Notes under the pieces: model-generated
What the model saw: the letters and a program-made list of their open reading frames with translations, nothing else
What the model was told of the DNA's origin: nothing
The model's database searches: none
In this document: in pieces, positions 1,138-17,896 of the stretch
Position numbering within the stretch: the first letter of the stretch is position 1
Layout of the letters: every line of letters begins with the position of its first letter
Assembly (NCBI GenBank): GCA_016188355.1
Contig: JACPHY010000010.1
Coordinates: 1-17,896, forward strand
Direction: 5' to 3'
From: Candidatus Uhrbacteria bacterium
GTDB taxonomy: Bacteria > Patescibacteriota > Patescibacteriia > JACPHY01
Length of the DNA stretch: 17,896 nucleotides
Translations under genes and position numbers: made by a program

Positions 1138-2394
1138 TTAGCTGACTATTGTTCCTCGTTTTTTGGTGAGGATGAGCCTTCGACAGTCTCCGCGAATCCG
1201 ATCGCTACTCCAGGGGACTTGGTAGTATTGGGTTGGGAAGTAGACCGGAAAGAAGAGGCGGAGGAGTTGGCGCAGACGATAGCGGAACCAGTTCTCTTCG
1301 CCCCGGGAGTACCAGAGATTCAGGTAGTCGCGGATATGCATGATCTGGACTTCCCACGGACCGCTTTGATCATCGAATTCTCCGTAGAGTTTCATTGCAC
1401 GGAAGTACGAACCAGAAAATCGATTGAGTGCCCGCTGGGAAGTCTTGGTGTAGCGATCGTTCCACCCGGCAGTCCAAAAGCCGAAGCGAGGAAATGTCTT
1501 CGCAAGTGTTTCGTAACAGGTGATGCGATCGTCATGCGACCAGCAGGCGATGCGGATTCCGCGGATATCCTCCACCCATTCCGGGAACGAGATATTATCG
1601 CGGAGCATGTGTAGGATGATGCTGAACGGTGTTTTCACGCGATACTGGATGAGACAATCGATCGCACGTTTGCACGTATCCTGGAATTGACCGACGTCCG
1701 GGAGGGTGATGGATTGCCACCCTGCTTTTGGGGTGAAGGAAACGTCGAGACAGCGGCCTTCCGGGTTCTTCCCTTCCACGTTGGTAAAATTCGCAAATAT
1801 CGTTCGTTCGTTCGGCAGTTGGGTGATCAACTGCTTCTGGAAGAGGTCCTGCACATACGAGTACGCATCGAGGCTCCTCTTGTAGAAGGACGGTGTCGAA
1901 GCCCCCAGATAGCCGCCGTATCGGATGCGGAGGATGAGCATGGCGAGATGATGGAGGCGGCGCGCCTCGAACGATAGGCGCCGCTGCTCCTCGCGATCAG
2001 ATTTCGGCATCATGATCGCAAGGAGTTCATTGAGAGAGCCTGGCGGTTCATGGATTACCGTATTCCGGCGAATGGTCTTCGCGTGTTCCTCCGGAATCCA
2101 TTGTTCGATCTGTTGCGCGAGCATGGTGTGCGCTTCTCCGATGGCACCGCCAATCGCACGTTCGGCATTTTCCTCGGGAGGAATAAATGGGAATGCGCCC
2201 TGCATGAGCCGCAACGCTCCTTCGGGGTGTGCCTGCCGTTCCCGGATGAGCGATTCGAAGAGTCGAATGTTGGTGTAGTCGAATGTGCGATGTTTGCGAA
2301 GCTGCTGGAGTGCACCTTCGTCCATGTCGATTCTGCTTGCGAGCAGCGGGTGCGCCATGGGGTCGCGCGCCAGCCGTCTCCGTGTTTTGGTCAT
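1138..2394 (-). CDS. Hypothetical protein, 418 aa, rich in Trp and Tyr, with no recognisable family.
   Basis: This is a long ORF with non-repetitive, protein-like composition, e.g. ...WSHDDRITCYETLAKTFPRFGFWTAGWNDRYTK...NLWYSRGEENWFRYRL.... A strong SD precedes the start: gacgaGGAGGcgccATG. It has its own terminator and a long upstream leader. The plus-strand ORFs 1219..1614 and 1687..1977 are shadows. Confidence 0.75.
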   Translation of the reverse strand: MTKTRRRLARDPMAHPLLASRIDMDEGALQQLRKHRTFDYTNIRLFESLIRERQAHPEGALRLMQGAFPFIPPEENAERAIGGAIGEAHTMLAQQIEQWIPEEHAKTIRRNTVIHEPPGSLNELLAIMMPKSDREEQRRLSFEARRLHHLAMLILRIRYGGYLGASTPSFYKRSLDAYSYVQDLFQKQLITQLPNERTIFANFTNVEGKNPEGRCLDVSFTPKAGWQSITLPDVGQFQDTCKRAIDCLIQYRVKTPFSIILHMLRDNISFPEWVEDIRGIRIACWSHDDRITCYETLAKTFPRFGFWTAGWNDRYTKTSQRALNRFSGSYFRAMKLYGEFDDQSGPWEVQIMHIRDYLNLWYSRGEENWFRYRLRQLLRLFFPVYFPTQYYQVPWSSDRIRGDCRRLILTKKRGTIVS

Positions 2395-2580
2395 GGCGCC
2401 TCCTCGTCCATTTGCGCGTGCAATTGCGGCGTGGCGACGAGATCCGAATGGCTCTCATCGCGTCCCGCGCGTGGTGAATTGGAAATGATCGTCCCCGCCA
2501 ATCGAGCGAAGGTGCACTCACTGTACGGAAGATCAAAATCTCTGTCAATGGCCTGGCATGAATGGTGGCTACGGACAAAT

Positions 2581-2634
2581 ACATACAAAACACGACCCAC
2601 TCGACTGTGTACGAGCGGGTCGTGCCTGTTTTCT
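2581..2634. terminator. Bidirectional intrinsic-terminator-like hairpin.
   Basis: The stem is cacgacccactcg (2591-2603) with loop actgtgta, then cgagcgggtcgtg (2612-2624). That is 13 bp with one mismatch. On the plus strand it is followed by cctgttttct. On the minus strand it is followed by UUUUGUAUGUAUUUGUC. Confidence 0.45.
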
Positions 2635-2652
2635 GAGCGTCCCGTTGCCGGA

Positions 2653-2668
2653 AACTCAAACATTCACA
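2653..2668. repeat. Direct repeat copy 1: AACTCAAACATTCACA.
   Basis: An exact 16-nt match to 2741-2756, about 88 bp away, lying in noncoding DNA. Confidence 0.6.
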
Positions 2669-2740
2669 AATTGACTATACGTGCGGGAGGCGTGCTTGTC
2701 AAGCTGGGCGTCTGTGGATCACCATGGAGTGGGGAGGCAG

Positions 2741-2756
2741 AACTCAAACATTCACA
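2741..2756. repeat. Direct repeat copy 2: AACTCAAACATTCACA. It sits in the loop of an imperfect hairpin (ggggaggcag...ctgtcctcccc) and is followed by CTGTTTTTT.
   Basis: An exact 16-nt match to 2653-2668. The flanking arms GGGGAGG and CCTCCCC are inverted. A T6 run follows at 2760-2765. Confidence 0.6.
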
Positions 2757-2841
2757 CTGTTTTTTGGGTCCCCTGTCCTCCCCTTTATCCTCACGCGCAG
2801 GCCCGCGTGATTTGAAATTATAGGGTAAAGCTTTGCAGCAG

Positions 2842-2872
2842 AGCGCCCGTTCCAGGCAGTGGAACGGGCGCT
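2842..2872 (-). terminator. Hairpin that probably terminates metK. The stem is perfect (12 bp) but the U-tract is weak.
   Basis: agcgcccgttcc / aggcagt / ggaacgggcgct lies 45 nt downstream of the metK stop at 2918. Downstream on the minus strand the sequence is cugcugcaaagcuuu. Confidence 0.4.
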
Positions 2873-2917
2873 TGTGGTTGCTTCACGCACGCGGATCATC
2901 GAGCTAGCAGTGCTCCT

Positions 2918-4096
2918 TCATGCTCCTTGCGTGCCAGATCCGGGTGACCATCGCTCCCAGGGGAGTTCCGGATCGCCGAAGTGCCCCCACGTGGCGAGAT
3001 GTTCCCAGCGCATGGCGTGGAGCTGCAGGTCGCGGAAGGTGCCGGCGATGGAGCAGTCGTACCCGGAGAGCCACCGGCGCGCAAATACGGGATCCGCTCG
3101 TTTCCAGGTGAGCGTGTGTGCTGCGGGATCATGCGTGCCAAACTGTATCTCCGACCATCGCGGGTTGGTGTCTCCCGGAGCGTAAGCGAGGTGCACGAGC
3201 GCGCGTTCGGCTACGCCGGCCATGACGAGGTGCTTTGCGATCTGACGCGCGCGCAGCGCGGCGGTGCGATCGATTTTGTGCGGGTCTTTCCCGGAGAGCG
3301 CACCCCCGCCGATTGGTACGTGCGGACCAAATGCGTCCACGACGAGCTTTTTTCCGGAGAGTCCGTTATCGCCTTCCGGCCCGCCGACCGCGAAATCGCC
3401 CGCGCCATTCACGAGGAGCGCGTCCGGATGTTCCTCCCAGGTGAGCGCGGGAATCGACGCGAGCCGCTGCTGGGCCGCTGCGCGGACGCGTTTTACGGCA
3501 TCAATGATGTCGACCGTCCCCACCTTCGGATGATGTTGCACGGAGCAGCTCATTGCTTCGATGTTGCAGCGTGCTTGGTGGCGCGTGCCGTCCCATTCGT
3601 CCCGAGCGACGATGAGTATTTTGCCGTCCGGTCCAAAGAGCTTCGGAGCGCTCCGTCGCTCACGATCGAGTTCCTCCGCGCATACGCGGGCAACTCGGTG
3701 CGCGGTGGGGAGGTAGTGTGTTTCCGGTTGTGCCTCCGCGTACCCGGTGACGATGTTTTGATCATCCGCGAGACGACGAATGTCGCGTTCCTCGGGTCGG
3801 AAATCGCCGAGGCAGAGATCCTGCAGGATGTGGAGGTGCTCGGGATTTGGTCCGAAGGTAGCACCGTATCCGCTCGTCGTGCAGATGCGGCGTGCGATGC
3901 GATCGACATCGATGGATTCCGCGCCCGGGCATGCGATGCGTCCATCGATGAAGACGTGATCGCGATGGACAGCGACCTCAATGCCGACGAGTGCATCGGT
4001 GTCGCGGGTGAGTGCGGCGTCCACAAGTGCGTCCGCAATGCGATCGCTGAGCTTATCGGGGTGTCCCGGGAGAGTGCATTCGGCGAAGGTGCGCAT
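2918..4096 (-). CDS. metK: S-adenosylmethionine synthetase (methionine adenosyltransferase).
   Basis: The N-terminus reads MRTFAECTLPGHPDKLSDRIADALVDAAL, where GHPDK is the MetK hallmark. Further in, ...GGGALSGKDPHKIDRTAALRARQIAKHLV matches the MetK GGGAFSGKDPTKVDRS P-loop. I chose the start at 4096 because GGAGGA lies 4 nt upstream. An in-frame ATG at 4108 (MEDPMRTF) is an alternative. The track ORF extending to 4303 (MASAPHH..., rich in P/R/T) is an unlikely N-terminal extension. The plus-strand ORF 2981..4243 is a shadow. Confidence 0.9.
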   Translation of the reverse strand: MRTFAECTLPGHPDKLSDRIADALVDAALTRDTDALVGIEVAVHRDHVFIDGRIACPGAESIDVDRIARRICTTSGYGATFGPNPEHLHILQDLCLGDFRPEERDIRRLADDQNIVTGYAEAQPETHYLPTAHRVARVCAEELDRERRSAPKLFGPDGKILIVARDEWDGTRHQARCNIEAMSCSVQHHPKVGTVDIIDAVKRVRAAAQQRLASIPALTWEEHPDALLVNGAGDFAVGGPEGDNGLSGKKLVVDAFGPHVPIGGGALSGKDPHKIDRTAALRARQIAKHLVMAGVAERALVHLAYAPGDTNPRWSEIQFGTHDPAAHTLTWKRADPVFARRWLSGYDCSIAGTFRDLQLHAMRWEHLATWGHFGDPELPWERWSPGSGTQGA

Positions 4097-4112
4097 GGGG
4101 TCCTCCATTCGA

Positions 4113-4143
4113 CTCCGACTCACGAAGGATTCGCGAGTCGGAG
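4113..4143 (-). promoter_or_regulatory. Perfect 9-bp hairpin in the metK 5' leader, positioned just upstream of the SD.
   Basis: On the minus strand the structure is CUCCGACUC gcgaauccuucgu GAGUCGGAG, followed by tcgaatGGAGGAccccATG. Confidence 0.35.
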
Positions 4144-4148
4144 GGAAT

Positions 4149-4175
4149 GGGCGATGCGTTGGAGTCGCATCGCCC
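4149..4175 (-). terminator. Perfect 10-bp GC-rich hairpin 4 nt after the stop of the VWA/peptidase gene. It is a candidate terminator or attenuator separating the four-gene module from metK.
   Basis: gggcgatgcg / ttggagt / cgcatcgccc. No clear U-tract follows on the minus strand; the next bases are auucccucc. Confidence 0.35.
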
Positions 4176-4179
4176 GCCG

Positions 4180-5568
4180 TCATGGGGCAAGGAGCGGTAG
4201 TTCGGTGAGTTCCTCTGCGATAGGTTGGAGGTCGGGGAGATAACCGTTCGGGGTGAGTGCGACGCGGATTCGGAGTTTCGCGGTGATGAGGCGCGCTCGC
4301 CATTCGCGGGTGGGTGGGCCGACGTATCCATCTGTCATGATGAGGATTTTTTGGAATCCCTCCTGGAGCGCGTGCTCCCAGATGCAGACGGCATCGGTAC
4401 CGCTGGTGGACGCGCAGGTGCCGGCGGCGAGCTGCGCGGTGGTCATCTCGTGGATTTGCTCACTGAAGGCAAACAGACGCGCGCGACGTTGCTGCACGTA
4501 CGGATGGACGAGTCCAGCAAAGAGGTTCCAGTACGGTCGTGTGCTGCCGCTCACGTCGATGTAGATCGAAGTGATGCCGCGGGCGTCCGTGATCTGTTGC
4601 GCGGGAATGACATTGCGGAAGATGAGCGGCGACCAACCGCCGGCGCTAGCAACCAGTGCGCGGCGATCGCGGAGCGTGGGAATGGGGGCCTCGATGGAGC
4701 GATCCGTGCATGCGCGATGGCGATGGGTTACCGCCCCCTTCACCTGCGCTTCCGCCATGGTGCGGAGCATCCGTCGGAGCACCTGCTGTGCACTCAGGGG
4801 GACGGGCGTGCGTTCGAGGAGGATGTCGCGAATGTCGCCCCCCACACTGCGTCCGCGAATGGGATCGGGTGGCATGGGCCATTTTTCCACAATCGATCGC
4901 ACCATGCCGTTCAGGAGGGGATGATGGGAGGCGGATTCCCCGCGACCTTCCGTATCTTCCGGGGAGTGATCTCCTAGGAGCACGGGCATCCTCGCTTCTT
5001 TTCCGATGCATTCGCGTAGCTGCGGGTCCTCCTGGAACAGCCGATAGACTTCGTCGTAGGTGCCGCTTGCTTCGGAGTAGAGGGTGCGGATCATGTGTTG
5101 CACGGGACGGGGGAGCGTTTTGGGAATCTGTATCTTTTTCGGCCATCCGGGTGGCGGACGGAGGAGCGCGGCGGGGAATTGATCTGCAGCGGAGAATTGG
5201 GTGAGAAAGGACGTGTAGATCGGTTCCGGGAAGAGCCGTGCCAGGATCGCATTAATGATTGCATCGAACACGATATTGTCGACCGGCGTCATGCGCGGGA
5301 AGAGTCGCGTGTGTCCGAGGAGGACATGGTGCAGTTCATGCATGACGAGCATGAAGAGATGCTCATCGGTTTTGCAGTATGCCGCGATGAAGTCCGGATT
5401 CAGGAGGAGCTTCGGCGCGGAAAGGCACTCCACGGCTGCACTGGGCACCGTCCACGATTCCACTACGTCGGTGAGCCGGAGGAAGGTATCGAGGGCGTAG
5501 TGTCCCGCAGGAAACGCCGAGAGTATCCGATGTCGGAGTGCATCGCTCGCGCGGCGATCCGCCATCAT
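4180..5568 (-). CDS. Fusion protein with an N-terminal HExxH zinc-metallopeptidase-like domain and a C-terminal von Willebrand A (VWA) domain. This is the DUF2201_N + DUF2201 architecture, the usual partner of MoxR/CbbQ-type AAA+ ATPases.
   Basis: The N-terminal half contains ...YCKTDEHLFMLVMHELHHVLLGHTRLF..., with HELHH as the HExxH motif. The C-terminal half contains ...ITSIYIDVSGSTRPYW... (a DxSxS MIDAS motif) and later ...STSGTD... and ...ILIMTDGYVG..., the VWA beta-strand motifs. The start MMADRR at 5568 overlaps the TGA of the upstream gene as ATGA, and GGAG lies 9 nt upstream. The 126 codons of the track ORF (4180..5946) upstream of this start are not used. ORF 5095..5934(+) and the ORFs at 4225-5204(+) are shadows. 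Confidence 0.8.
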   Translation of the reverse strand: MMADRRASDALRHRILSAFPAGHYALDTFLRLTDVVESWTVPSAAVECLSAPKLLLNPDFIAAYCKTDEHLFMLVMHELHHVLLGHTRLFPRMTPVDNIVFDAIINAILARLFPEPIYTSFLTQFSAADQFPAALLRPPPGWPKKIQIPKTLPRPVQHMIRTLYSEASGTYDEVYRLFQEDPQLRECIGKEARMPVLLGDHSPEDTEGRGESASHHPLLNGMVRSIVEKWPMPPDPIRGRSVGGDIRDILLERTPVPLSAQQVLRRMLRTMAEAQVKGAVTHRHRACTDRSIEAPIPTLRDRRALVASAGGWSPLIFRNVIPAQQITDARGITSIYIDVSGSTRPYWNLFAGLVHPYVQQRRARLFAFSEQIHEMTTAQLAAGTCASTSGTDAVCIWEHALQEGFQKILIMTDGYVGPPTREWRARLITAKLRIRVALTPNGYLPDLQPIAEELTELPLLAP

Positions 5569-6092
5569 GGCAGGATCTCCGCGAGCGCGACGATGCGCGG
5601 ATCGAAGGTAACGAGCTCGCGGAGCAGGAGCTCTGGCGTCACGTTGGGTGTTTTCGATGCGATGAACAGGCGGTCGGATGTTTTTGCGAGGATTGCGAGG
5701 GTGAGGGGGAGATCGCGGATGCGTCCCCAGCGAAAGGGGCGATTTAGGTTTTCTCGTATGACGGATCCCTGCTCTTGGAATATGATGCATCCCACGAATC
5801 GTTGCGCACAGATAGTGGCGTCGGCAATGGCGCAGAGGGCTTCGGCGTCGTCTTGCGCTGCGGAGACGTGTTTGGCGACCAGACTCCGGAGGCCTCGACA
5901 TACCGTATTCGGATGTCGCGTCATGATGATGTGATTCGCATTGCACGCTTCCTTCAGTGAGACGCGCACGGCGGTACGTCCCCGTACCGCGGCACCCGAT
6001 GCGGTAGTTTTCGAGGGCAGCGGCTTGACGGTGACGGTCGATCTCGACGCGCCGCTCATGTTGTGGGCGAGCGATTGTGTATCGGCGGTCAT
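5565..6092 (-). CDS. Hypothetical 175-aa protein with a Ser/Thr/Ala-rich disordered N-terminus followed by a globular domain of about 120 aa. It is an inserted middle gene of the AAA+/VWA module.
   Basis: The start ATG at 6092..6090 overlaps the TGA of the AAA gene at 6091..6089 as ATGA. Its own TGA at 5567..5565 overlaps the next ATG at 5568..5566, again as ATGA. The sequence is MTADTQSLAHNMSGASRSTVTVKPLPSKTTASGAAVRGRTAVRVSLKEA...CRGLRSLVAKHV...ELLLRELVTFDPRIVALAEILP. I treat the 16 upstream codons in the track ORF (to 6140) as non-coding overlap with the AAA gene. Confidence 0.6.
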   Translation of the reverse strand: MTADTQSLAHNMSGASRSTVTVKPLPSKTTASGAAVRGRTAVRVSLKEACNANHIIMTRHPNTVCRGLRSLVAKHVSAAQDDAEALCAIADATICAQRFVGCIIFQEQGSVIRENLNRPFRWGRIRDLPLTLAILAKTSDRLFIASKTPNVTPELLLRELVTFDPRIVALAEILP

Positions 6093-12901: not shown

Positions 12902-13996
12902 ATGCTACGGTTTCCCGATATGTTCTCCAGGAATACCACACGCCGCACAACCTCGCGAATCCCGCTTCCGACCGATGCGGTGGTTGCGGTGACGTATCTC
13001 TGTAATTCGCGGTGCACCATGTGTGACTTTTGGAAGGAGACGCGGCAGCCGACGATGACGGTCGAGGACTATCGCAAGCTCCCTCCAACACTCCGCGATA
13101 TCAATGTGAGTGGCGGTGAGCCGTTTCTCCATCCCCAGATCGTTGCGATCGTACGCGCACTCCACGAAACCTGCCCGAAGGCGCGCATCACGATTTCAAC
13201 GAATGGGTTTTTGACCGATCTCATCTGCAAGCGCACGCGCGATATCCTCGAATTTCTTCCGGACATCGGCATCCGCATTTCCATTGATGGCGTAGGGGAC
13301 ATGCACGAGCGCATCCGCCGGATCCCGCAGGCGCTCCAGAAAGATCTCGCCACCCTCCGCGGGCTCCGTGCGATCGGCGTGCGGGATATCGGATTTGGAT
13401 ACACGATGACGGAGGAAAATGTAGAGCACTGCACGAAGGTCTACGCGCTCGCGCAACAGGAGCGTGTGGATTGCACCTGGGCAGTGGCGCAGAGCTCGGA
13501 TTTTTATTTTGGCGGTAAGCAAATTGAACGCCGCGTGGATCCGGCGGTCGTTGCCCGAGAATTTGATGTGCTCATGGAAGCGGAGCTTCGGCGATGGCGA
13601 CCGAAGTCGTGGGTGCGCGCGTATTTCGCCTATGGATTGCGGCGACTGGCGCTCGACGGCGTGCAGGTGCTGCCATCGCGAGCGGGAACGGACTTCTTCT
13701 TTTTGGATCCATTTGGCAACGTATATCCTTCGGTCGTGCATCCATCAGTCATGGGTAATTGTGCCGCGGCGACATCGTTTTCGGATCTCTGGACGAGCAC
13801 AGCGGCAGCGCATGCGCGGCGCGTGGTGGCGGCGTGGGACCGCCCCTATTGGATGGTCTGCACGGCGCGTACCGCCATTCGACGCAATCTGCCGCGTGTC
13901 GCGCGATGGGTGCTGGTGCAGCAGTTGCGTCTTTTGCCGCAGCGGCTCACGGGGCATCGTTCTCTGTCGGTACCGACGGCAGCAGCTACTCCATGA
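12902..13996 (+). CDS. Radical SAM domain protein.
   Basis: ...AVVAVTYLCNSRCTMCDFWK... carries the CxxxCxxC [4Fe-4S] motif. ...DINVSGGEPFLHPQ... is the glycine-rich SAM-binding motif. ...ITISTNGFL... and ...IRISIDG... are also present. The start is uncertain. I chose the ATG at 12902 (MLRFPDMF), the first ATG after the upstream stop, but it has no clear SD. The track ORF begins at 12641, overlapping the previous gene. No full SPASM Cys cluster is present. Confidence 0.8.
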   Translation: MLRFPDMFSRNTTRRTTSRIPLPTDAVVAVTYLCNSRCTMCDFWKETRQPTMTVEDYRKLPPTLRDINVSGGEPFLHPQIVAIVRALHETCPKARITISTNGFLTDLICKRTRDILEFLPDIGIRISIDGVGDMHERIRRIPQALQKDLATLRGLRAIGVRDIGFGYTMTEENVEHCTKVYALAQQERVDCTWAVAQSSDFYFGGKQIERRVDPAVVAREFDVLMEAELRRWRPKSWVRAYFAYGLRRLALDGVQVLPSRAGTDFFFLDPFGNVYPSVVHPSVMGNCAAATSFSDLWTSTAAAHARRVVAAWDRPYWMVCTARTAIRRNLPRVARWVLVQQLRLLPQRLTGHRSLSVPTAAATP

Positions 13997-15414
13997 CGCG
14001 TCATCCAAAAATTACGACAGCGATCATGGCGATTGCTCCGGCCCTCCTCGCGGGGGTAGCGGCTGCATTGGTTCCTGCCATTCCCGTATTCGTCGGATGG
14101 GGGATTGTGGTGGCATTCGCGTTGCTCTGCTGGCGCCCCATGATTGGCATGGTGCTCATAGTGCTCACGTATCCATTCCTCGCATATGAGATTCCCGTGG
14201 GACCGCTCCACATCCCCCCGGTCGATTTGGTGGCGCTGGCGACCGCGGTGGCGGTGAGCGTCCGTTTTGTATGGAGCTGGTCGCGGACTGGTATTCGTCC
14301 AATGGTCGAGTTGCCTCCGGGCGCACTGGCCTTCGGCATGCTCACTGTGGTGGGCATGTTGTCGTTGGTGCATACGGATAATTTTTTCGGCAGCGCAAAA
14401 TTCCTCGCGCGGCCGATCATGTTCGGATATCTCATGTTCCTGGTGTTGCCACTGCACCTTTTGGATGCTCCGCAGCGTCTCTTCCGAGTATTCCGTGCGA
14501 TGGGGGTGATTGGGGTGGTGGCTGCGGCGATGGGAACGTGGTCCCTCGTGCTCCCCGTGGAACCCGGCGCCCTGCGCCGCGCGGTCCCCGTGGCGATTGC
14601 GGGTATTGCGCCGCTGGGGACGAACCATAACCTTCTTGCGGAAGTACTGGTGAGCGTAGCCCCCGTGGGAATTGCGCTCGCGACGTTGGCCTCCGGAACG
14701 ATGCGGCGATGGATGTGGGCCGGCACGGCGTGGTGCGTGGTGATTGCGCTGGCAACGTTTTCGCGGAATGCATGGCTGGCGCTGGCCGTGGAAGGCGTGG
14801 TGCTGCTCGCCGCATATGCGCACGCGCATGGCATCGCGTGGCGCCGCGTCCTCGGTGGCATGGGCGTGCTCGTGCTCATGGCAACCATGGCGGTCGGCGT
14901 GCTTTCGGCGACGGGTGTGGCGCAGAGTTCGAATCGTAATCGGTTGCAGTTGATGACGATCGCGTTCGAGCAATTCCGAGCGCATCCATGGATTGGTGGC
15001 GGCACGGGTACGTTCCTGGATGCGGTTCGGCGTGATCGGTGGTACATGGCGGATTTTGGGCGACCACTGGATGCGCATGGATTCGTACCGAAGTTGCTCG
15101 CAGAAACCGGCATGCTGGGGCTCGCGGCGTACAGTGGACTGCTCGGCGCGGTGCTGTATACGATCGCGCGTGCCTCGCTCCGCGTGGTGCATGCACCGCG
15201 CTGGCGTCTGATGGTGCTCGCGTTGCTCGCGAGTGCGGTGGGGAGCGTCGCGTTCCAGTTATTCAATACGTCGTATTTTGTCGCGAAGCTCTGGCTCCCC
15301 CTAGGCATTGCCGTGGCGACGGCGCGACTCGCGCAGCGGAGTGCGGGGCCTATGCCGTCACGATCATCCGAGCGGATCGAGCATCCTCATTTGCTGCGGC
15401 AATTGCTATCATAA
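13993..15414 (+). CDS. O-antigen ligase/polymerase-like (Wzy/WaaL-type) polytopic membrane protein.
   Basis: The ATG at 13993 overlaps the rSAM TGA as ATGA. The protein is 473 aa and highly hydrophobic, with at least 10 predicted TM segments, e.g. AIMAIAPALLAGVAAALVPAIPVFVGWGIVVAFALL and ...FSRNAWLALAVEGVVLLAAYA.... It has a large periplasmic-loop region. The antisense ORFs 13846..15192 and 14001..15308 are shadows. Confidence 0.75.
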   Translation: MTRHPKITTAIMAIAPALLAGVAAALVPAIPVFVGWGIVVAFALLCWRPMIGMVLIVLTYPFLAYEIPVGPLHIPPVDLVALATAVAVSVRFVWSWSRTGIRPMVELPPGALAFGMLTVVGMLSLVHTDNFFGSAKFLARPIMFGYLMFLVLPLHLLDAPQRLFRVFRAMGVIGVVAAAMGTWSLVLPVEPGALRRAVPVAIAGIAPLGTNHNLLAEVLVSVAPVGIALATLASGTMRRWMWAGTAWCVVIALATFSRNAWLALAVEGVVLLAAYAHAHGIAWRRVLGGMGVLVLMATMAVGVLSATGVAQSSNRNRLQLMTIAFEQFRAHPWIGGGTGTFLDAVRRDRWYMADFGRPLDAHGFVPKLLAETGMLGLAAYSGLLGAVLYTIARASLRVVHAPRWRLMVLALLASAVGSVAFQLFNTSYFVAKLWLPLGIAVATARLAQRSAGPMPSRSSERIEHPHLLRQLLS

Positions 15415-15418
15415 CCAC

Positions 15419-16507
15419 ATGCTCCGCGTGACGTTCATCGGTACGTCCTTTGCGATTGGTGGCGCCGAACAGCTCCAACTTGAGCTGGCACGGCGGTTAC
15501 CCCGCGATCGTTTTTCCGTGGAGGTGGTGGCGGTAGTGCGGGGAGGGCCGCTGGAGGAGGAGTTTCGTGCGCTCGGCATCCCGACCACAGTCATCGGGAA
15601 GACGACCAAGTGGGGATGGAGTACGATCGAGCAGTTGCGCGCGCACCTGGTGGCGCAGCAGCCGGATGTCGTCCACACCCATCTCTTTGGTGGAGATACA
15701 TGGGGACGCGTTGCGGCGATTCGCGCGGGGGTGCGGTGCATCGTTTCGACAGAGCACAATATTAACGTGGATGAGGGAATCGGGAAGCGGTTCGTGAAGC
15801 GGGTGCTTGCCCGGTACACCACACGCATTGTTGCGGTTTCCGATGCGGTGCGGGTGGCGAGTATGCGTCGCGACGGCATTCCGTCGCGGCTGCTGACCGT
15901 GATACCTAATGGCGTGGATACGGAACAGTTTCGGCCTGCGCCCGCGTCCGCGCATGCGACCGTGCAATTGCTCACAGTGGGGCGACTTGTCCCACAAAAG
16001 GGTCACGACGTACTGATGGATGCGATGGCGATCCTTCGGGATGAGCTGCCGCACGTGGTGCTGGATGTGGTGGGTGATGGTCCGCGTCGCGCAGCACTCG
16101 AATCGCATGTGCGCGCATATGGATTGGCGGAGCGCGTGCGTTTTTTGGGCATGCGCCGCGATTTGCCGGACCAATATCATCGAGCGGATATTGCCGTATT
16201 CCCATCGCGTTGGGAAGGATTTGGTATTGCAGCGGCAGAGGCGATGTCCTGTGGTATTCCCGTCATTGCGACGCGCGTGGATGGGCTTGCCGAGGTGGTG
16301 GTTCCGGACGTGACTGGATTGCTTGTTCCTGCAAATGATCCGGTGGCGCTCGCACAAGCGATTCGTGCGCTTGCGCAGGATCGCGCACGTCGACTGTTGT
16401 TGGGTGCCGCCGGACGTCGTCGTGTGCTCGAGTGTTTTGATATTCGCAATGTCGTACGTCGGTACGGGGAGTTCTATGAAGCAGCTGCGCGTGCTCCTCG
16501 TCAATAA
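15419..16507 (+). CDS. GT4-family (GT-B) glycosyltransferase.
   Basis: MLRVTFIGTSFAIGGAEQ... and ...FPSRWEGFGIAAAEAMSCGIPVIATRVDGLAEVV... carry the EX7E-type GT4 signature. The start lies 4 nt after the upstream stop. ORF 15497..16825(-) is a shadow. Confidence 0.85.
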   Translation: MLRVTFIGTSFAIGGAEQLQLELARRLPRDRFSVEVVAVVRGGPLEEEFRALGIPTTVIGKTTKWGWSTIEQLRAHLVAQQPDVVHTHLFGGDTWGRVAAIRAGVRCIVSTEHNINVDEGIGKRFVKRVLARYTTRIVAVSDAVRVASMRRDGIPSRLLTVIPNGVDTEQFRPAPASAHATVQLLTVGRLVPQKGHDVLMDAMAILRDELPHVVLDVVGDGPRRAALESHVRAYGLAERVRFLGMRRDLPDQYHRADIAVFPSRWEGFGIAAAEAMSCGIPVIATRVDGLAEVVVPDVTGLLVPANDPVALAQAIRALAQDRARRLLLGAAGRRRVLECFDIRNVVRRYGEFYEAAARAPRQ

Positions 16508-17765
16508 ATTTTGGTACCCCAAAGGAGGATCGGAGCGGTACACCCTACTGCTGCGGGACATACTCCGTGCGCAGGGGCACGAGGTGGTCCCGTTTGCGAT
16601 GACCGATCCGAAAAATCTTCCCACGCAATGGGCGGAATATTTTGCGCCGTCGGTGGATTGGGGGGATGGGAGTGCTCGGGCATCCTCGCCATCGCACGCA
16701 TGGACGAGTTTGACACGTGTGCTCTGGAACCGCGCCGCCGCCGCTGCATTGGATCGACTCCTGCAGCGGGTGCGTCCGGATGTTGCCCATCTACAGAATT
16801 TTGCGCACCAACTCTCCCCCTCCATTCTTCCCGTGCTCGCGCGGCACGGGGTTCCGATTGTTTGGACCTTGCACGACTACAAGTTGCTCTGCCCGAACTA
16901 TCGTCTGTACACCCAGGGCGCTCCGTGTGAACGGTGTCAGGGGCATTCGTATTGGAATGCGGTGCGGTACAACTGCATGGGGCGGCGTAGTGCGAGTGTG
17001 GCGGTCGCGGCGGAAATGTACCTCCATCATGCGTTGACGAATGTGTATGGGAAGCACATCGCTGCGGTGATTGCGCCGAGCGCATTCCTCGCGGATCGGC
17101 TCCAGGAGTGGGGATGGCGAGGGCGAATCGAGGTGGTGCCGAATTGCATTGAATCACTTCCTGTACCGGACAGAGTAATCTCGGCGCGTGATCGGGTTGG
17201 TGTGTTGTTTGTGGGTCGATTGGTGGAGGAGAAAGGGGTAGGGGATTTCCTGGAAGCGGTGCGGCGACTGCCGGAGATTCCGTTTGTGGTGATCGGGGAT
17301 GGTTCGCTCGGCGCAGAGATGCGGAAGGCGGTCGCGACCTGCGTGAACCTCACGTGGCACGGTGCACAATCTCCCGATCAGATGCGCGCACACTACGAGC
17401 GTGCTCGGGTGCTCGTCGTACCGTCGCGATGGTATGAGAATGCACCATACGTGGTCCTCGAAGCGATGCGGGCGGGGACTCCGGTGATCGCGACGCGCAT
17501 GGGGGGACTTCCGGAGCTCGTTCACGATGGCGAAACGGGCGTACTGGTACCGCCGCGGAATCCGGTTGCGCTCGCGCATGCTATTGCGGCGCTCGTCGCC
17601 GATGAGGGGCGCTGCTCCGTATTGGGGGAGCGAGCGCAGCAGCGGGCACGCGCACCATACGACCCTGCATCGCACTACGCACGGATACGCGCGCTCTATC
17701 GGGAGGTGTCGGTCCGCCCCACCATTACAGCAGAGGTACGCGCAGGGAGCGGAGTGGGCTTATAA
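16476..17765 (+). CDS. GT4-family glycosyltransferase with an internal Cys cluster.
   Basis: MKQLRVLLVNKFWYPKGGSERY... and ...VPSRWYENAPYVVLEAMRAGTPVIATRMGGLPELV.... GGGAG lies 4 nt upstream of the ATG. The gene overlaps the previous GT by 32 nt. The Cys cluster is CPNYRLYTQGAPCERCQGHSYWNAVRYNC. Confidence 0.85.
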   Translation: MKQLRVLLVNKFWYPKGGSERYTLLLRDILRAQGHEVVPFAMTDPKNLPTQWAEYFAPSVDWGDGSARASSPSHAWTSLTRVLWNRAAAAALDRLLQRVRPDVAHLQNFAHQLSPSILPVLARHGVPIVWTLHDYKLLCPNYRLYTQGAPCERCQGHSYWNAVRYNCMGRRSASVAVAAEMYLHHALTNVYGKHIAAVIAPSAFLADRLQEWGWRGRIEVVPNCIESLPVPDRVISARDRVGVLFVGRLVEEKGVGDFLEAVRRLPEIPFVVIGDGSLGAEMRKAVATCVNLTWHGAQSPDQMRAHYERARVLVVPSRWYENAPYVVLEAMRAGTPVIATRMGGLPELVHDGETGVLVPPRNPVALAHAIAALVADEGRCSVLGERAQQRARAPYDPASHYARIRALYREVSVRPTITAEVRAGSGVGL

Positions 17766-17777
17766 AACGAAGTTGGA

Positions 17778-17819
17778 ACAGCGGTAAGGTGAAAGTGAAG
17801 ATCAATCACTCACCGCTGT
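17778..17819 (+). terminator. Imperfect hairpin after the last glycosyltransferase gene; a possible terminator.
   Basis: acagcggt...accgctgt forms 8 bp, with inner gtga/tcac pairs. No strong T-tract follows. Confidence 0.25.
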
Positions 17820-17896
17820 CCCTATGTCGATTGTAGGATCGGTCCCGTCTCCTGCGAAGCTCCGCATCCTCTTCCGTCGCTGCACCTTCGGTCCCC

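Follow-up and report, generated by a model that had tools for sequence, protein, structure and literature searches.

Loci of the Wzx/Wzy type bring together a Wzy_C-domain membrane protein and family 4 glycosyltransferases (GT4s) in one operon, and genes for radical S-adenosylmethionine (SAM) enzymes (rSAM) are not unprecedented in glycan loci, as a block on a Brachyspira plasmid illustrates (PMC4267127). The described rSAM enzymes that offer the nearest comparisons to the one considered here come from other settings: BtrN (2-deoxy-scyllo-inosamine dehydrogenase) and SpeY belong to aminoglycoside pathways, and BlsE (cytosylglucuronate decarboxylase) to a nucleoside-antibiotic pathway. Here we analyse a contig of 17,896 bp (hereafter the window) from an ultra-small bacterium of Candidatus Uhrbacteria, a lineage of the Patescibacteria or Candidate Phyla Radiation (CPR), in which an rSAM gene, a Wzy_C gene and two GT4 genes (GT4a and GT4b) occupy positions 12902-17765. 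We read this stretch as the central part of a module, typical of ABY1-type Patescibacteria, that assembles a cell-surface glycan, and what is new is a Wzy_C/GT4 glycan locus that has an uncharacterised, twitch-derived and probably single-cluster rSAM enzyme as its constant partner. Members of the Patescibacteria, whose genomes are tiny, attach to other cells to live, and their surface chemistry has scarcely been described; to our knowledge, no ABY1-type member has been cultured.

As read from the DNA, the four genes lie tightly packed on one strand, and they are listed here with the features on which the argument draws:

12902-13996, + strand: rSAM gene (ATG at 12902, TGA at 13994-13996; 364 amino acids)
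13001-13024, + strand: CX3CX2C motif (C34, C38, C41) for the SAM-cleaving [4Fe-4S] cluster, invariant among 34 aligned homologs
13112-13120, + strand: GGE SAM motif, with SGGEP invariant in the homolog alignment
13676-13861, + strand: degenerate twitch domain of the rSAM protein (beta-hairpin 265-275 and helices 293-328 in the AlphaFold2 model)
13880-13960, + strand: C-terminal amphipathic helix of the rSAM protein (approximately residues 328-350; AlphaFold2 helix 330-350; hydrophobic moment 1.1-1.4)
13993-13996, + strand: ATGA start/stop overlap of rSAM and Wzy_C (ATG at 13993-13995, within the rSAM stop)
13993-15414, + strand: Wzy_C gene (473 amino acids; stop TAA at 15412-15414)
14905-15111, + strand: 69-residue loop of the Wzy_C protein (residues 305-373; invariant R317, P332, G335, G337, H362, K367 and E371)
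15419-16507, + strand: GT4a gene (362 amino acids; stop at 16505-16507; PF00534 and PF13439)
16476-17765, + strand: GT4b gene (429 amino acids; stop at 17763-17765; PF00534 and PF13439)
12842-12871, + strand: terminator-like hairpin (13 bp stem and T-rich tail) between an upstream open reading frame (ORF) of 304 amino acids and rSAM

The DNA reading and the Pfam matches confirm the genes, domains and three junctions given in the original prediction, namely the ATGA overlap, a 4-nt gap between Wzy_C and GT4a (ATG at 15419) and a 32-nt overlap between GT4a and GT4b (ATG at 16476). The NCBI call for the rSAM protein (P0001) is 358 amino acids long and begins at an in-frame ATG at 12920, the NCBI Wzy_C product (P0121, 473 amino acids) has exactly the start given above, and an alternative in-frame ATG for GT4b lies at 16449. 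The unrelated upstream ORF and the module are set apart by the hairpin at 12842-12871, whose position suggests that rSAM heads its own transcription unit. A scan for sigma-70 promoters found none that was convincing directly upstream of rSAM, and searches for RNA families, riboswitches and tRNAs found none within the window.

The strongest evidence for a functional module comes from the recurrence of its gene arrangement in relatives. Taking one genome per species, we surveyed 391 rSAM relatives and kept 80 loci, and the counts that follow, over 81 species-level loci, combine clustering of neighbouring genes with a tblastn recount; the recount covers a set of high-GC loci in which ORFs were poorly called (the window, L001-L003, L017, L036, L037 and L078). 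Where named, the lineages are mostly Patescibacteria of Uhr-, Falkow-, Kerfeld-, Magasanik-, Kuenen- or Parcubacteria type, and many records carry placeholder names. In approximately 70 of the 81 loci (61 by tblastn and 9 divergently oriented ones from clustering) the rSAM gene has a Wzy_C gene within 8 kb, and in 48 (tblastn) it has one within 400 nt. GT4 genes are found near rSAM in 65 loci, and a protein of approximately 670 amino acids, composed of an N-terminal membrane anchor, a GHL15 domain and FG-GAP repeats, in 60; the GHL15 profile of this protein matches GH114 TIM-barrel structures (8rg3 and 8rg5, E 4e-7). The commonest order is rSAM-Wzy_C-GT4-GT4 followed by the GHL15 protein, and in loci of Magasanikbacteria type it becomes Wzy_C-rSAM-GT4 followed by the GHL15 protein. 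Dozens of species-level genomes share the commonest order although their rSAM proteins are only 40-55% identical to that of the window, and from this we judge the arrangement to be far beyond chance. An association of the rSAM gene with Wzy_C and glycosyltransferase genes is thus conserved well outside a few close relatives, so that the lack of conservation which would have refuted the original prediction is not seen, and it is reinforced by fusions of rSAM with GT2, GT4, GT28 and GHL15 domains.

The 11 loci without Wzy_C fall into two groups. In six, the contig breaks off immediately upstream of rSAM, and the remaining five (L075-L079) are more distant than all others and apparently non-Patescibacterial; in L075 and L079 the rSAM homolog lies among genes for Bac_transf, NAD-epimerase, GHMP kinase, GT4, methyltransferase and B12-rSAM proteins. 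Wzz chain-length proteins are encoded at 7 loci, and peptidoglycan genes (Mur ligase, MraY-family, FemAB-like and the division and cell wall, or dcw, cluster) are frequent neighbours. The closest relative, L081, has an rSAM protein 81% identical to ours and keeps the synteny of the window, with the addition of an ORF of 173 amino acids and a third GT4. The GHL15/FG-GAP gene is absent from the window contig, and none was found within the 20 kb retrieved for L081. In some loci the Wzy_C and GT4 genes are separated by a gene for a class I SAM methyltransferase (e.g. L053, 9513-10217), a variability typical of glycan loci. The gene set is kept across Uhr-, Falkow-, Kerfeld-, Magasanik- and Kuenenbacteria, and because it is kept together across these lineages with tiny genomes, it likely makes an important envelope component. 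The locus offers a testable lead for both rSAM enzymology and CPR surface biology.

Domain fusions provide a second type of linkage. A profile scan of 1.8 billion representative sequences places the size of the rSAM family at 925 clusters at 50% identity (E <= 1e-30), and among its best 150 representatives we found the following architectures:

GT2-rSAM: P0151, P0178, P0238 and P0165
GT4-rSAM: P0161 and P0162
rSAM-GT4: P0279
GT28C-rSAM: P0218
rSAM-methyltransferase: P0180
LPG_synthase_TM (flippase-like)-rSAM: P0290
rSAM-transmembrane helix-GHL15-FG-GAP: P0145
GT2-GT2-GT4-rSAM giants: P0280 (2011 amino acids) and P0291 (2163 amino acids; Candidatus Gygaella obscura, MDP8259969.1)

Several of these fusion types recur across independent assemblies. 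At L083 and L084 a fused GT4-rSAM gene stands between Wzy_C and two further GT4 genes and adjoins the dcw cluster, and at L082 a MopE protein and Wzy_C precede a fused rSAM-GHL15 gene, which is followed by housekeeping genes with no glycosyltransferase nearby. The rSAM family is tied to glycosyltransferases, to Wzy_C and to the GH114-like exoprotein, genomically as well as by fusion. For enzymology, the repeated GT2, GT4 and GT28 fusions provide a defined entry to a radical step in glycan assembly. Among the giants, P0280 contains two Radical_SAM stretches, the rSAM region or regions of both carry a SPASM domain, and the cluster of P0291 has members in several assemblies.

The P0145 fusion is also informative about topology. 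Here the amphipathic helix of the rSAM domain leads into a strongly hydrophobic transmembrane helix and then into the GHL15 domain, an arrangement that makes a coherent topology of a cytoplasmic rSAM domain, a membrane helix and an external GHL15 domain, with the C-terminal end of rSAM lying at the membrane. The window protein shares a C-terminal amphipathic helix of this kind, which in the structural model is a candidate membrane-surface helix. Such signs of the membrane (the helix, the TM-GHL15 fusion and the LPG_synthase_TM fusion) can also be turned towards a different substrate, whereby the rSAM enzyme would modify or build a polyprenyl or other lipid carrier or anchor of the glycan on the cytoplasmic side of the membrane, in the manner of HpnH or GDGT-MAS; the minimal loci without glycosyltransferase genes would fit this explanation, as would a weak likeness of the core to HpnH (29 bits) and GDGT-MAS. 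However, the similarity is to the generic core and lies far under the cutoffs (225 for HpnH), and the commonest fusion partners are soluble GT-A or GT-B glycosyltransferase domains. Moreover, Patescibacteria are generally thought to be very limited in lipid biosynthesis, and we regard a lipid substrate as decidedly unlikely.

The identity of the rSAM protein was examined by profile and by fold. It matches PF04055 with 58.5 bits (cutoff 29.5), and its two SAM-binding motifs are invariant in an alignment whose sequences are 46-81% identical. The AlphaFold2 model (pLDDT 89.5) consists of alternating beta and alpha elements that form a partial TIM barrel, and its top fold matches in a Foldseek search of the PDB are all rSAM enzymes, led by BlsE (7vob; E 1e-12, TM-scores 0.54/0.60, 20% identity) and continuing with SkfB, CteB, anSME, SuiB, MoaA and PqqE, which is to say the SPASM/twitch fold class. 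A profile search of PDB sequences returned similarity of the core only, to SkfB, BlsE (second), BtrN, viperin and MoaA. Functional transfer from these PDB searches was dropped, the sequence and fold matches being distant only. No NCBIfam family reaches its cutoff (the best, TIGR03961, scores 63 bits against 306), and all NCBIfam matches are confined to the core. A full-text literature search found no description of the rSAM family or of the module and no characterised member, and the ten close Cys-complete relatives that we looked up are all metagenomic.

At the outset, the rSAM gene might have been a chance neighbour of the glycan genes, coding for an enzyme of housekeeping or defence (MoaA, QueE or viperin-like). 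In favour of this are weak core matches to MoaA (TIGR02666, 35.8 bits), to viperin (NF038283, 24.7 bits) and to pVip in PADLOC (39 bits), as well as an upstream block of genes with the flavour of a conflict system (MoxR-vWA-MVP, described below). Yet the MoaA and pVip matches span only residues 28-106 and 30-132, respectively, the scores for MoaA and viperin are far under their cutoffs (284.05 and 180), and QueE does not figure among the 25 matches listed of 42 in NCBIfam. Additionally, the MoxR-vWA-MVP neighbours are common to L081 only, whereas linkage to Wzy_C, GT4 and GHL15 genes is conserved in approximately 70 of 81 loci and is accompanied by fusions. A chance neighbour of this kind is effectively refuted, and the original prediction stands in treating the enzyme as something other than housekeeping. 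A defence system, as raised by matches to PF20706 ('GT4-conflict'), was rejected as well, given that generic GT4 models score far higher and that PADLOC returned only a weak match to the viperin core.

Comparison with described enzymes is most instructive for the C-terminal part of the protein. BtrN and SpeY likewise consist of an rSAM core followed by a short C-terminal twitch hairpin and helix, both use small carbohydrate-type substrates, and both are among the sequence and fold matches of the window protein. Most of the wider family of the window protein has the four cysteines expected for one auxiliary [4Fe-4S] cluster, which extends the likeness. However, identity is approximately 15-20%, TM-scores are 0.27-0.36 on the query, neither BtrN nor SpeY is found beside Wzy_C or GT4 genes, and the clade to which the window belongs is without three of the four auxiliary ligands. 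BlsE offers the best solved fold, acts on a sugar-nucleoside and is, by name, a non-oxidative decarboxylase, yet it is only 20% identical and its family cutoff is missed by far (TIGR04466, 38.5 bits against 400).

A census of the best 150 representatives of the family makes the loss of ligands explicit. Cysteine occupies each of four twitch columns in 107-119 of the 150, and a fifth column in 58. The window protein has S259, S277, Y316 and C320 at the four columns, such that C320 alone is kept, and the whole Patescibacterial clade shows the same pattern, with serine, asparagine or threonine at 259, an invariant S277, a variable position 316 and an invariant C320. Of 48 Cys-depleted sequences, 47 group into a single pure clade when a neighbour-joining tree is drawn, and this clade is nested among 99 Cys-complete ones; the nesting indicates that, as far as the sequences allow a judgement, the cysteines were lost in a single secondary event. 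The original prediction described the enzyme as having no SPASM or twitch Cys cluster, which is true of the window protein itself; however, a relic of the twitch fold is present, and the cysteines are kept in most relatives. Thus, of the features of the SPASM/twitch subgroup, the C-terminal hairpin and helix extension is retained and the auxiliary-cluster ligands are missing, and close homologs still give weak matches to the SPASM profile PF13186. One Cys-complete relative, L064, has a gene order (rSAM-Wzy_C-GT4-GT4) identical to that of the window, and the existence of Cys-complete and Cys-depleted sister clades within one gene order amounts to a natural experiment on the purpose of the twitch auxiliary cluster. 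A second, more distant rSAM paralog occurs at L027 (5681-6790), L052 (3529-4638) and L063 (12178-13272), and in the L052 and L063 copies three of the four auxiliary-cluster cysteines are still present (C-S-C-C).

Loss of three of four auxiliary ligands throughout a clade might be taken to mean that the protein is catalytically dead and serves as a structural or scaffolding subunit in a glycan-assembly complex of the membrane, for which its tight linkage and its fusions would be suitable; indeed, one distant member (P0279) has lost even the CX3CX2C motif. Nevertheless, C34, C38, C41, the GGE motif and many core residues are invariant at 46-81% identity, which argues for selection on SAM-cluster chemistry, and the invariance of S277 and C320 suggests a retained functional site, not decay. 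We consequently hold an inactive scaffold to be very improbable. Because the CX3CX2C and GGE motifs stay invariant, the window enzyme is instead probably active with a single cluster.

The reactions open to such an enzyme are narrowed by what it lacks. The SPASM maturases (anSME, SkfB, CteB, SuiB and PqqE) share its fold class, and many homologs have weak PF13186 matches, but the window protein has no auxiliary cysteines and no RiPP recognition element (RRE) or other peptide-binding domain, and its gene has no conserved precursor-peptide gene beside it. A role as a maturase of peptides synthesised by the ribosome and modified post-translationally (RiPPs) was accordingly rejected as unlikely, there being no conserved small ORF adjoining rSAM. 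C-methylation, one of the sugar modifications entertained in the original prediction, is unlikely too, since Pfam detects no B12-binding or other methylase domain; the cobalamin-binding domain PF02310 is absent, the protein begins approximately 30 residues before the CX3CX2C motif, and no methylase families occur among the NCBIfam matches listed. Twitch enzymes that catalyse two-electron oxidations are proposed to use the auxiliary cluster as electron acceptor (PMC9012708), and a BtrN-type oxidation is unlikely here because three auxiliary ligands are lost.

The second gene encodes a membrane protein that matches PF04932 (49.5 bits, cutoff 31.7), with approximately 11-12 hydrophobic transmembrane helices according to hydropathy and to the AlphaFold2 model (pLDDT 86). 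Its best Foldseek match is WaaL (7tpg, TM-scores 0.56/0.64), followed by FtsW/RodA. The likeness to WaaL, Wzy and PglL thus extends from the Pfam family to the number of transmembrane helices, the WaaL fold and a loop with family-typical arginine, histidine and glutamate, and the loop at residues 305-373, in which R317 and H362 are among the invariant positions, is a candidate for the catalytic loop typical of the family, although its region aligns weakly to WaaL 7tpg. The protein nonetheless is only approximately 15% identical to WaaL and matches no NCBIfam family, and profile and Foldseek searches of the PDB return WaaL and SEDS proteins only, which does not discriminate between a ligase, a polymerase and an oligosaccharyltransferase. 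The Patescibacterial host presumably has no lipopolysaccharide, so this protein should not be a classical lipid-A-core ligase, and the Wzz genes in some related loci favour a polymerase role.

The Wzy_C family also includes O-oligosaccharyltransferases, which leads to an explanation in terms of protein glycosylation. Here the Wzy_C protein would act as an oligosaccharyltransferase of PglL/PilO type on pilins or on surface proteins, with the rSAM enzyme tailoring either the lipid-linked glycan or the protein target. In 11 loci, large secreted proteins with MopE-motif repeats (PF11617) are indeed encoded immediately upstream of the module (e.g. L008, 4877-7714; L001, 4372-7122; L082, 924-2837), and DUF11 proteins occur near it in approximately 22-25, downstream where checked (e.g. 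L020, 14725-16575); both may be glycosylation targets or, alternatively, co-regulated adhesins. The Wzy_C fold and Pfam match fit this role as readily as the other two, and the rSAM fold matches include the protein and peptide maturases anSME, SkfB, CteB and SuiB, of which anSME, a modifier of sulfatases, provides an analogy for a protein target. However, neither the window nor L081 has such a surface-protein gene beside the cluster, Wzz in 7 loci points to polymerisation, the fusion partners of rSAM are glycosyltransferases and not RRE domains or target proteins, and the auxiliary clusters of the peptide maturases are missing in the window protein. On balance we consider protein glycosylation unlikely.

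Both glycosyltransferases have the two-domain GT-B architecture, with GT4a scoring 149 bits for PF00534 and 97 bits for PF13439, and GT4b 122 and 68 bits, and the GT4 family is one of retaining chemistry. Neither protein attains the cutoff of any specific NCBIfam equivalog, the best for GT4a being TIGR03088 (186 bits, below its cutoff of 409). The N-terminal domain of GT4b contains a Cys-rich insertion (16890-16976, residues 139-167), CPNYRLYTQGAPCERCQGHSYWNAVRYNC, which is possibly a zinc-binding loop. A further likeness is to the Pel and galactosaminogalactan systems, where a GT4 synthase is combined with a GH114/GH166-type hydrolase, much as GT4s here are combined with an extracytoplasmic GH114-like TIM-barrel protein. 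Against this, PelF scores only 64 bits for GT4a and 30 bits for GT4b (cutoff 100), partners of the PelA, PelD, PelE or PelG type are absent from the window, Wzy_C and rSAM genes are present, and GHL15 is absent from both the window and L081.

Taken with the Pfam assignments of Wzy_C and of two GT4s, the conserved linkage and the fusions support the proposal of a glycan-assembly cluster, and the reading that we favour, and consider reasonably probable, is that a membrane-proximal, single-cluster rSAM enzyme tailors a sugar redox-neutrally and that the GT4s and the WaaL-fold protein build a surface glycan. On the cytoplasmic side, the two GT4s would assemble an oligosaccharide whose carrier is polyprenyl phosphate, while the C-terminal amphipathic helix may hold the rSAM enzyme at the membrane. 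The latter would cleave SAM to a 5'-deoxyadenosyl radical and abstract a hydrogen from a sugar C-H position of a nucleotide-linked or lipid-linked intermediate. Because there is no auxiliary cluster to accept an electron, a redox-neutral outcome would be most likely, and the reactions that we infer are epimerisation, dehydration or decarboxylation. Radical epimerases use a cysteine as hydrogen donor, and the invariant Cys320 is a candidate for a donor of hydrogen atoms here. Following export, the WaaL-fold protein would polymerise or ligate the glycan outside the membrane, and in most relatives the membrane-anchored GH114-like/FG-GAP protein, which has no counterpart on the window contig, may process it.

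Several observations weigh against this proposal. The rSAM fold matches are distant (TM-scores 0.5-0.6, at most 20% identity), and most of the top matches are peptide maturases. Some loci hold only Wzy_C, rSAM and GHL15 with no glycosyltransferase nearby (the L029 type and L082). According to Pfam, the window has no initiating phosphoglycosyltransferase, Wzx flippase, Wzz or sugar-nucleotide genes, and no flippase, initiating phosphoglycosyltransferase or sugar-nucleotide genes occur in the conserved neighbour clusters that were scanned. Wzy_C and GT4s in one operon, and Wzz homologs in 7 related loci, recall Wzx/Wzy loci, but the constant partners here are the rSAM and the GH114-like exoprotein, and because the classical partner genes are missing from the window and from the conserved neighbourhood alike, the data do not demonstrate a classical Wzx/Wzy pathway; the missing flippase and initiating-transferase genes may lie elsewhere in the genome. 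Finally, the status of the four genes as a single transcript is deduced from their spacing, and the substrate, the reaction and the substrate class (sugar, lipid or protein) are deduced from context.

A bolder possibility, which we regard as doubtful, is that the rSAM, Wzy_C and GH114-like/FG-GAP trio forms an unrecognised, envelope-spanning Patescibacterial machine, in which the twitch enzyme, its auxiliary cluster discarded, performs new radical chemistry directly on a lipid-linked envelope precursor. The trio sometimes occurs without a nearby glycosyltransferase and is sometimes fused as rSAM-TM-GHL15. A secondary cell-wall polymer is one candidate for this precursor and, since dcw, Mur and MraY neighbours are frequent, a peptidoglycan-related intermediate is another; the product, if this were true, would be a surface structure important for an episymbiotic lifestyle.

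The flanks of the module contain several further features. The contig stops 131 nt past GT4b, and in this short interval an imperfect hairpin without a T-tract (approximately 17781-17822) is followed by an ORF that begins with an ATG at 17824 and runs off the contig end (17824-17896, + strand; MSIVGSVPSPAKLRILFRRCTFGP...), unlike the N-terminus of the third GT4 found behind GT4b in L081. On the other side, the ORF of 304 amino acids that adjoins rSAM (11923-12837, + strand) has no family match, and its sole homolog found is in L081 (298 amino acids); its motif 'LVSGASAMGVD...ATGGREQ' resembles what we take to be a Rossmann fold of SLOG/LOG type.

Further upstream, an ORF of 418 amino acids (1138-2394, - strand) matched only itself among the 80 loci and the window, and had no match in PADLOC. 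It is followed by a divergent MetK-like S-adenosylmethionine synthetase (2918-4303, - strand), which has all three Pfam domains, scores 206 bits for TIGR01034 (below the cutoff of 309) and, if translation began at the first ATG, would carry a long, basic extension at its N-terminus. The MetK-like gene was rejected as a part of the module, being syntenic in L081 only, with the other loci lacking it.

Between this gene and the ORF of 304 amino acids, a block on the - strand (4180-11407), syntenic in L081 at 1499-8436, encodes a von Willebrand factor A (vWA)/DUF2201-like protein (4180-5946), a MoxR-type AAA ATPase (6089-7714) and a protein resembling Major Vault Protein, or MVP (9620-11407; MVP_shoulder with 104 bits, Vault repeats and SPFH). 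PADLOC gave no match for the vWA-MoxR-MVP block. The MoxR and MVP-like genes are separated by a Cys-rich ORF of 344 amino acids (7719-8753, - strand), which has no match in Pfam, NCBIfam or PADLOC and contains six CxxC motifs in three pairs (70/87, 200/222 and 292/311), suggesting three zinc-ribbon-like units. As a whole, the block is reminiscent of a 'ternary'-type MoxR-vWA system to which an MVP homolog has been joined, something unusual for a CPR bacterium.

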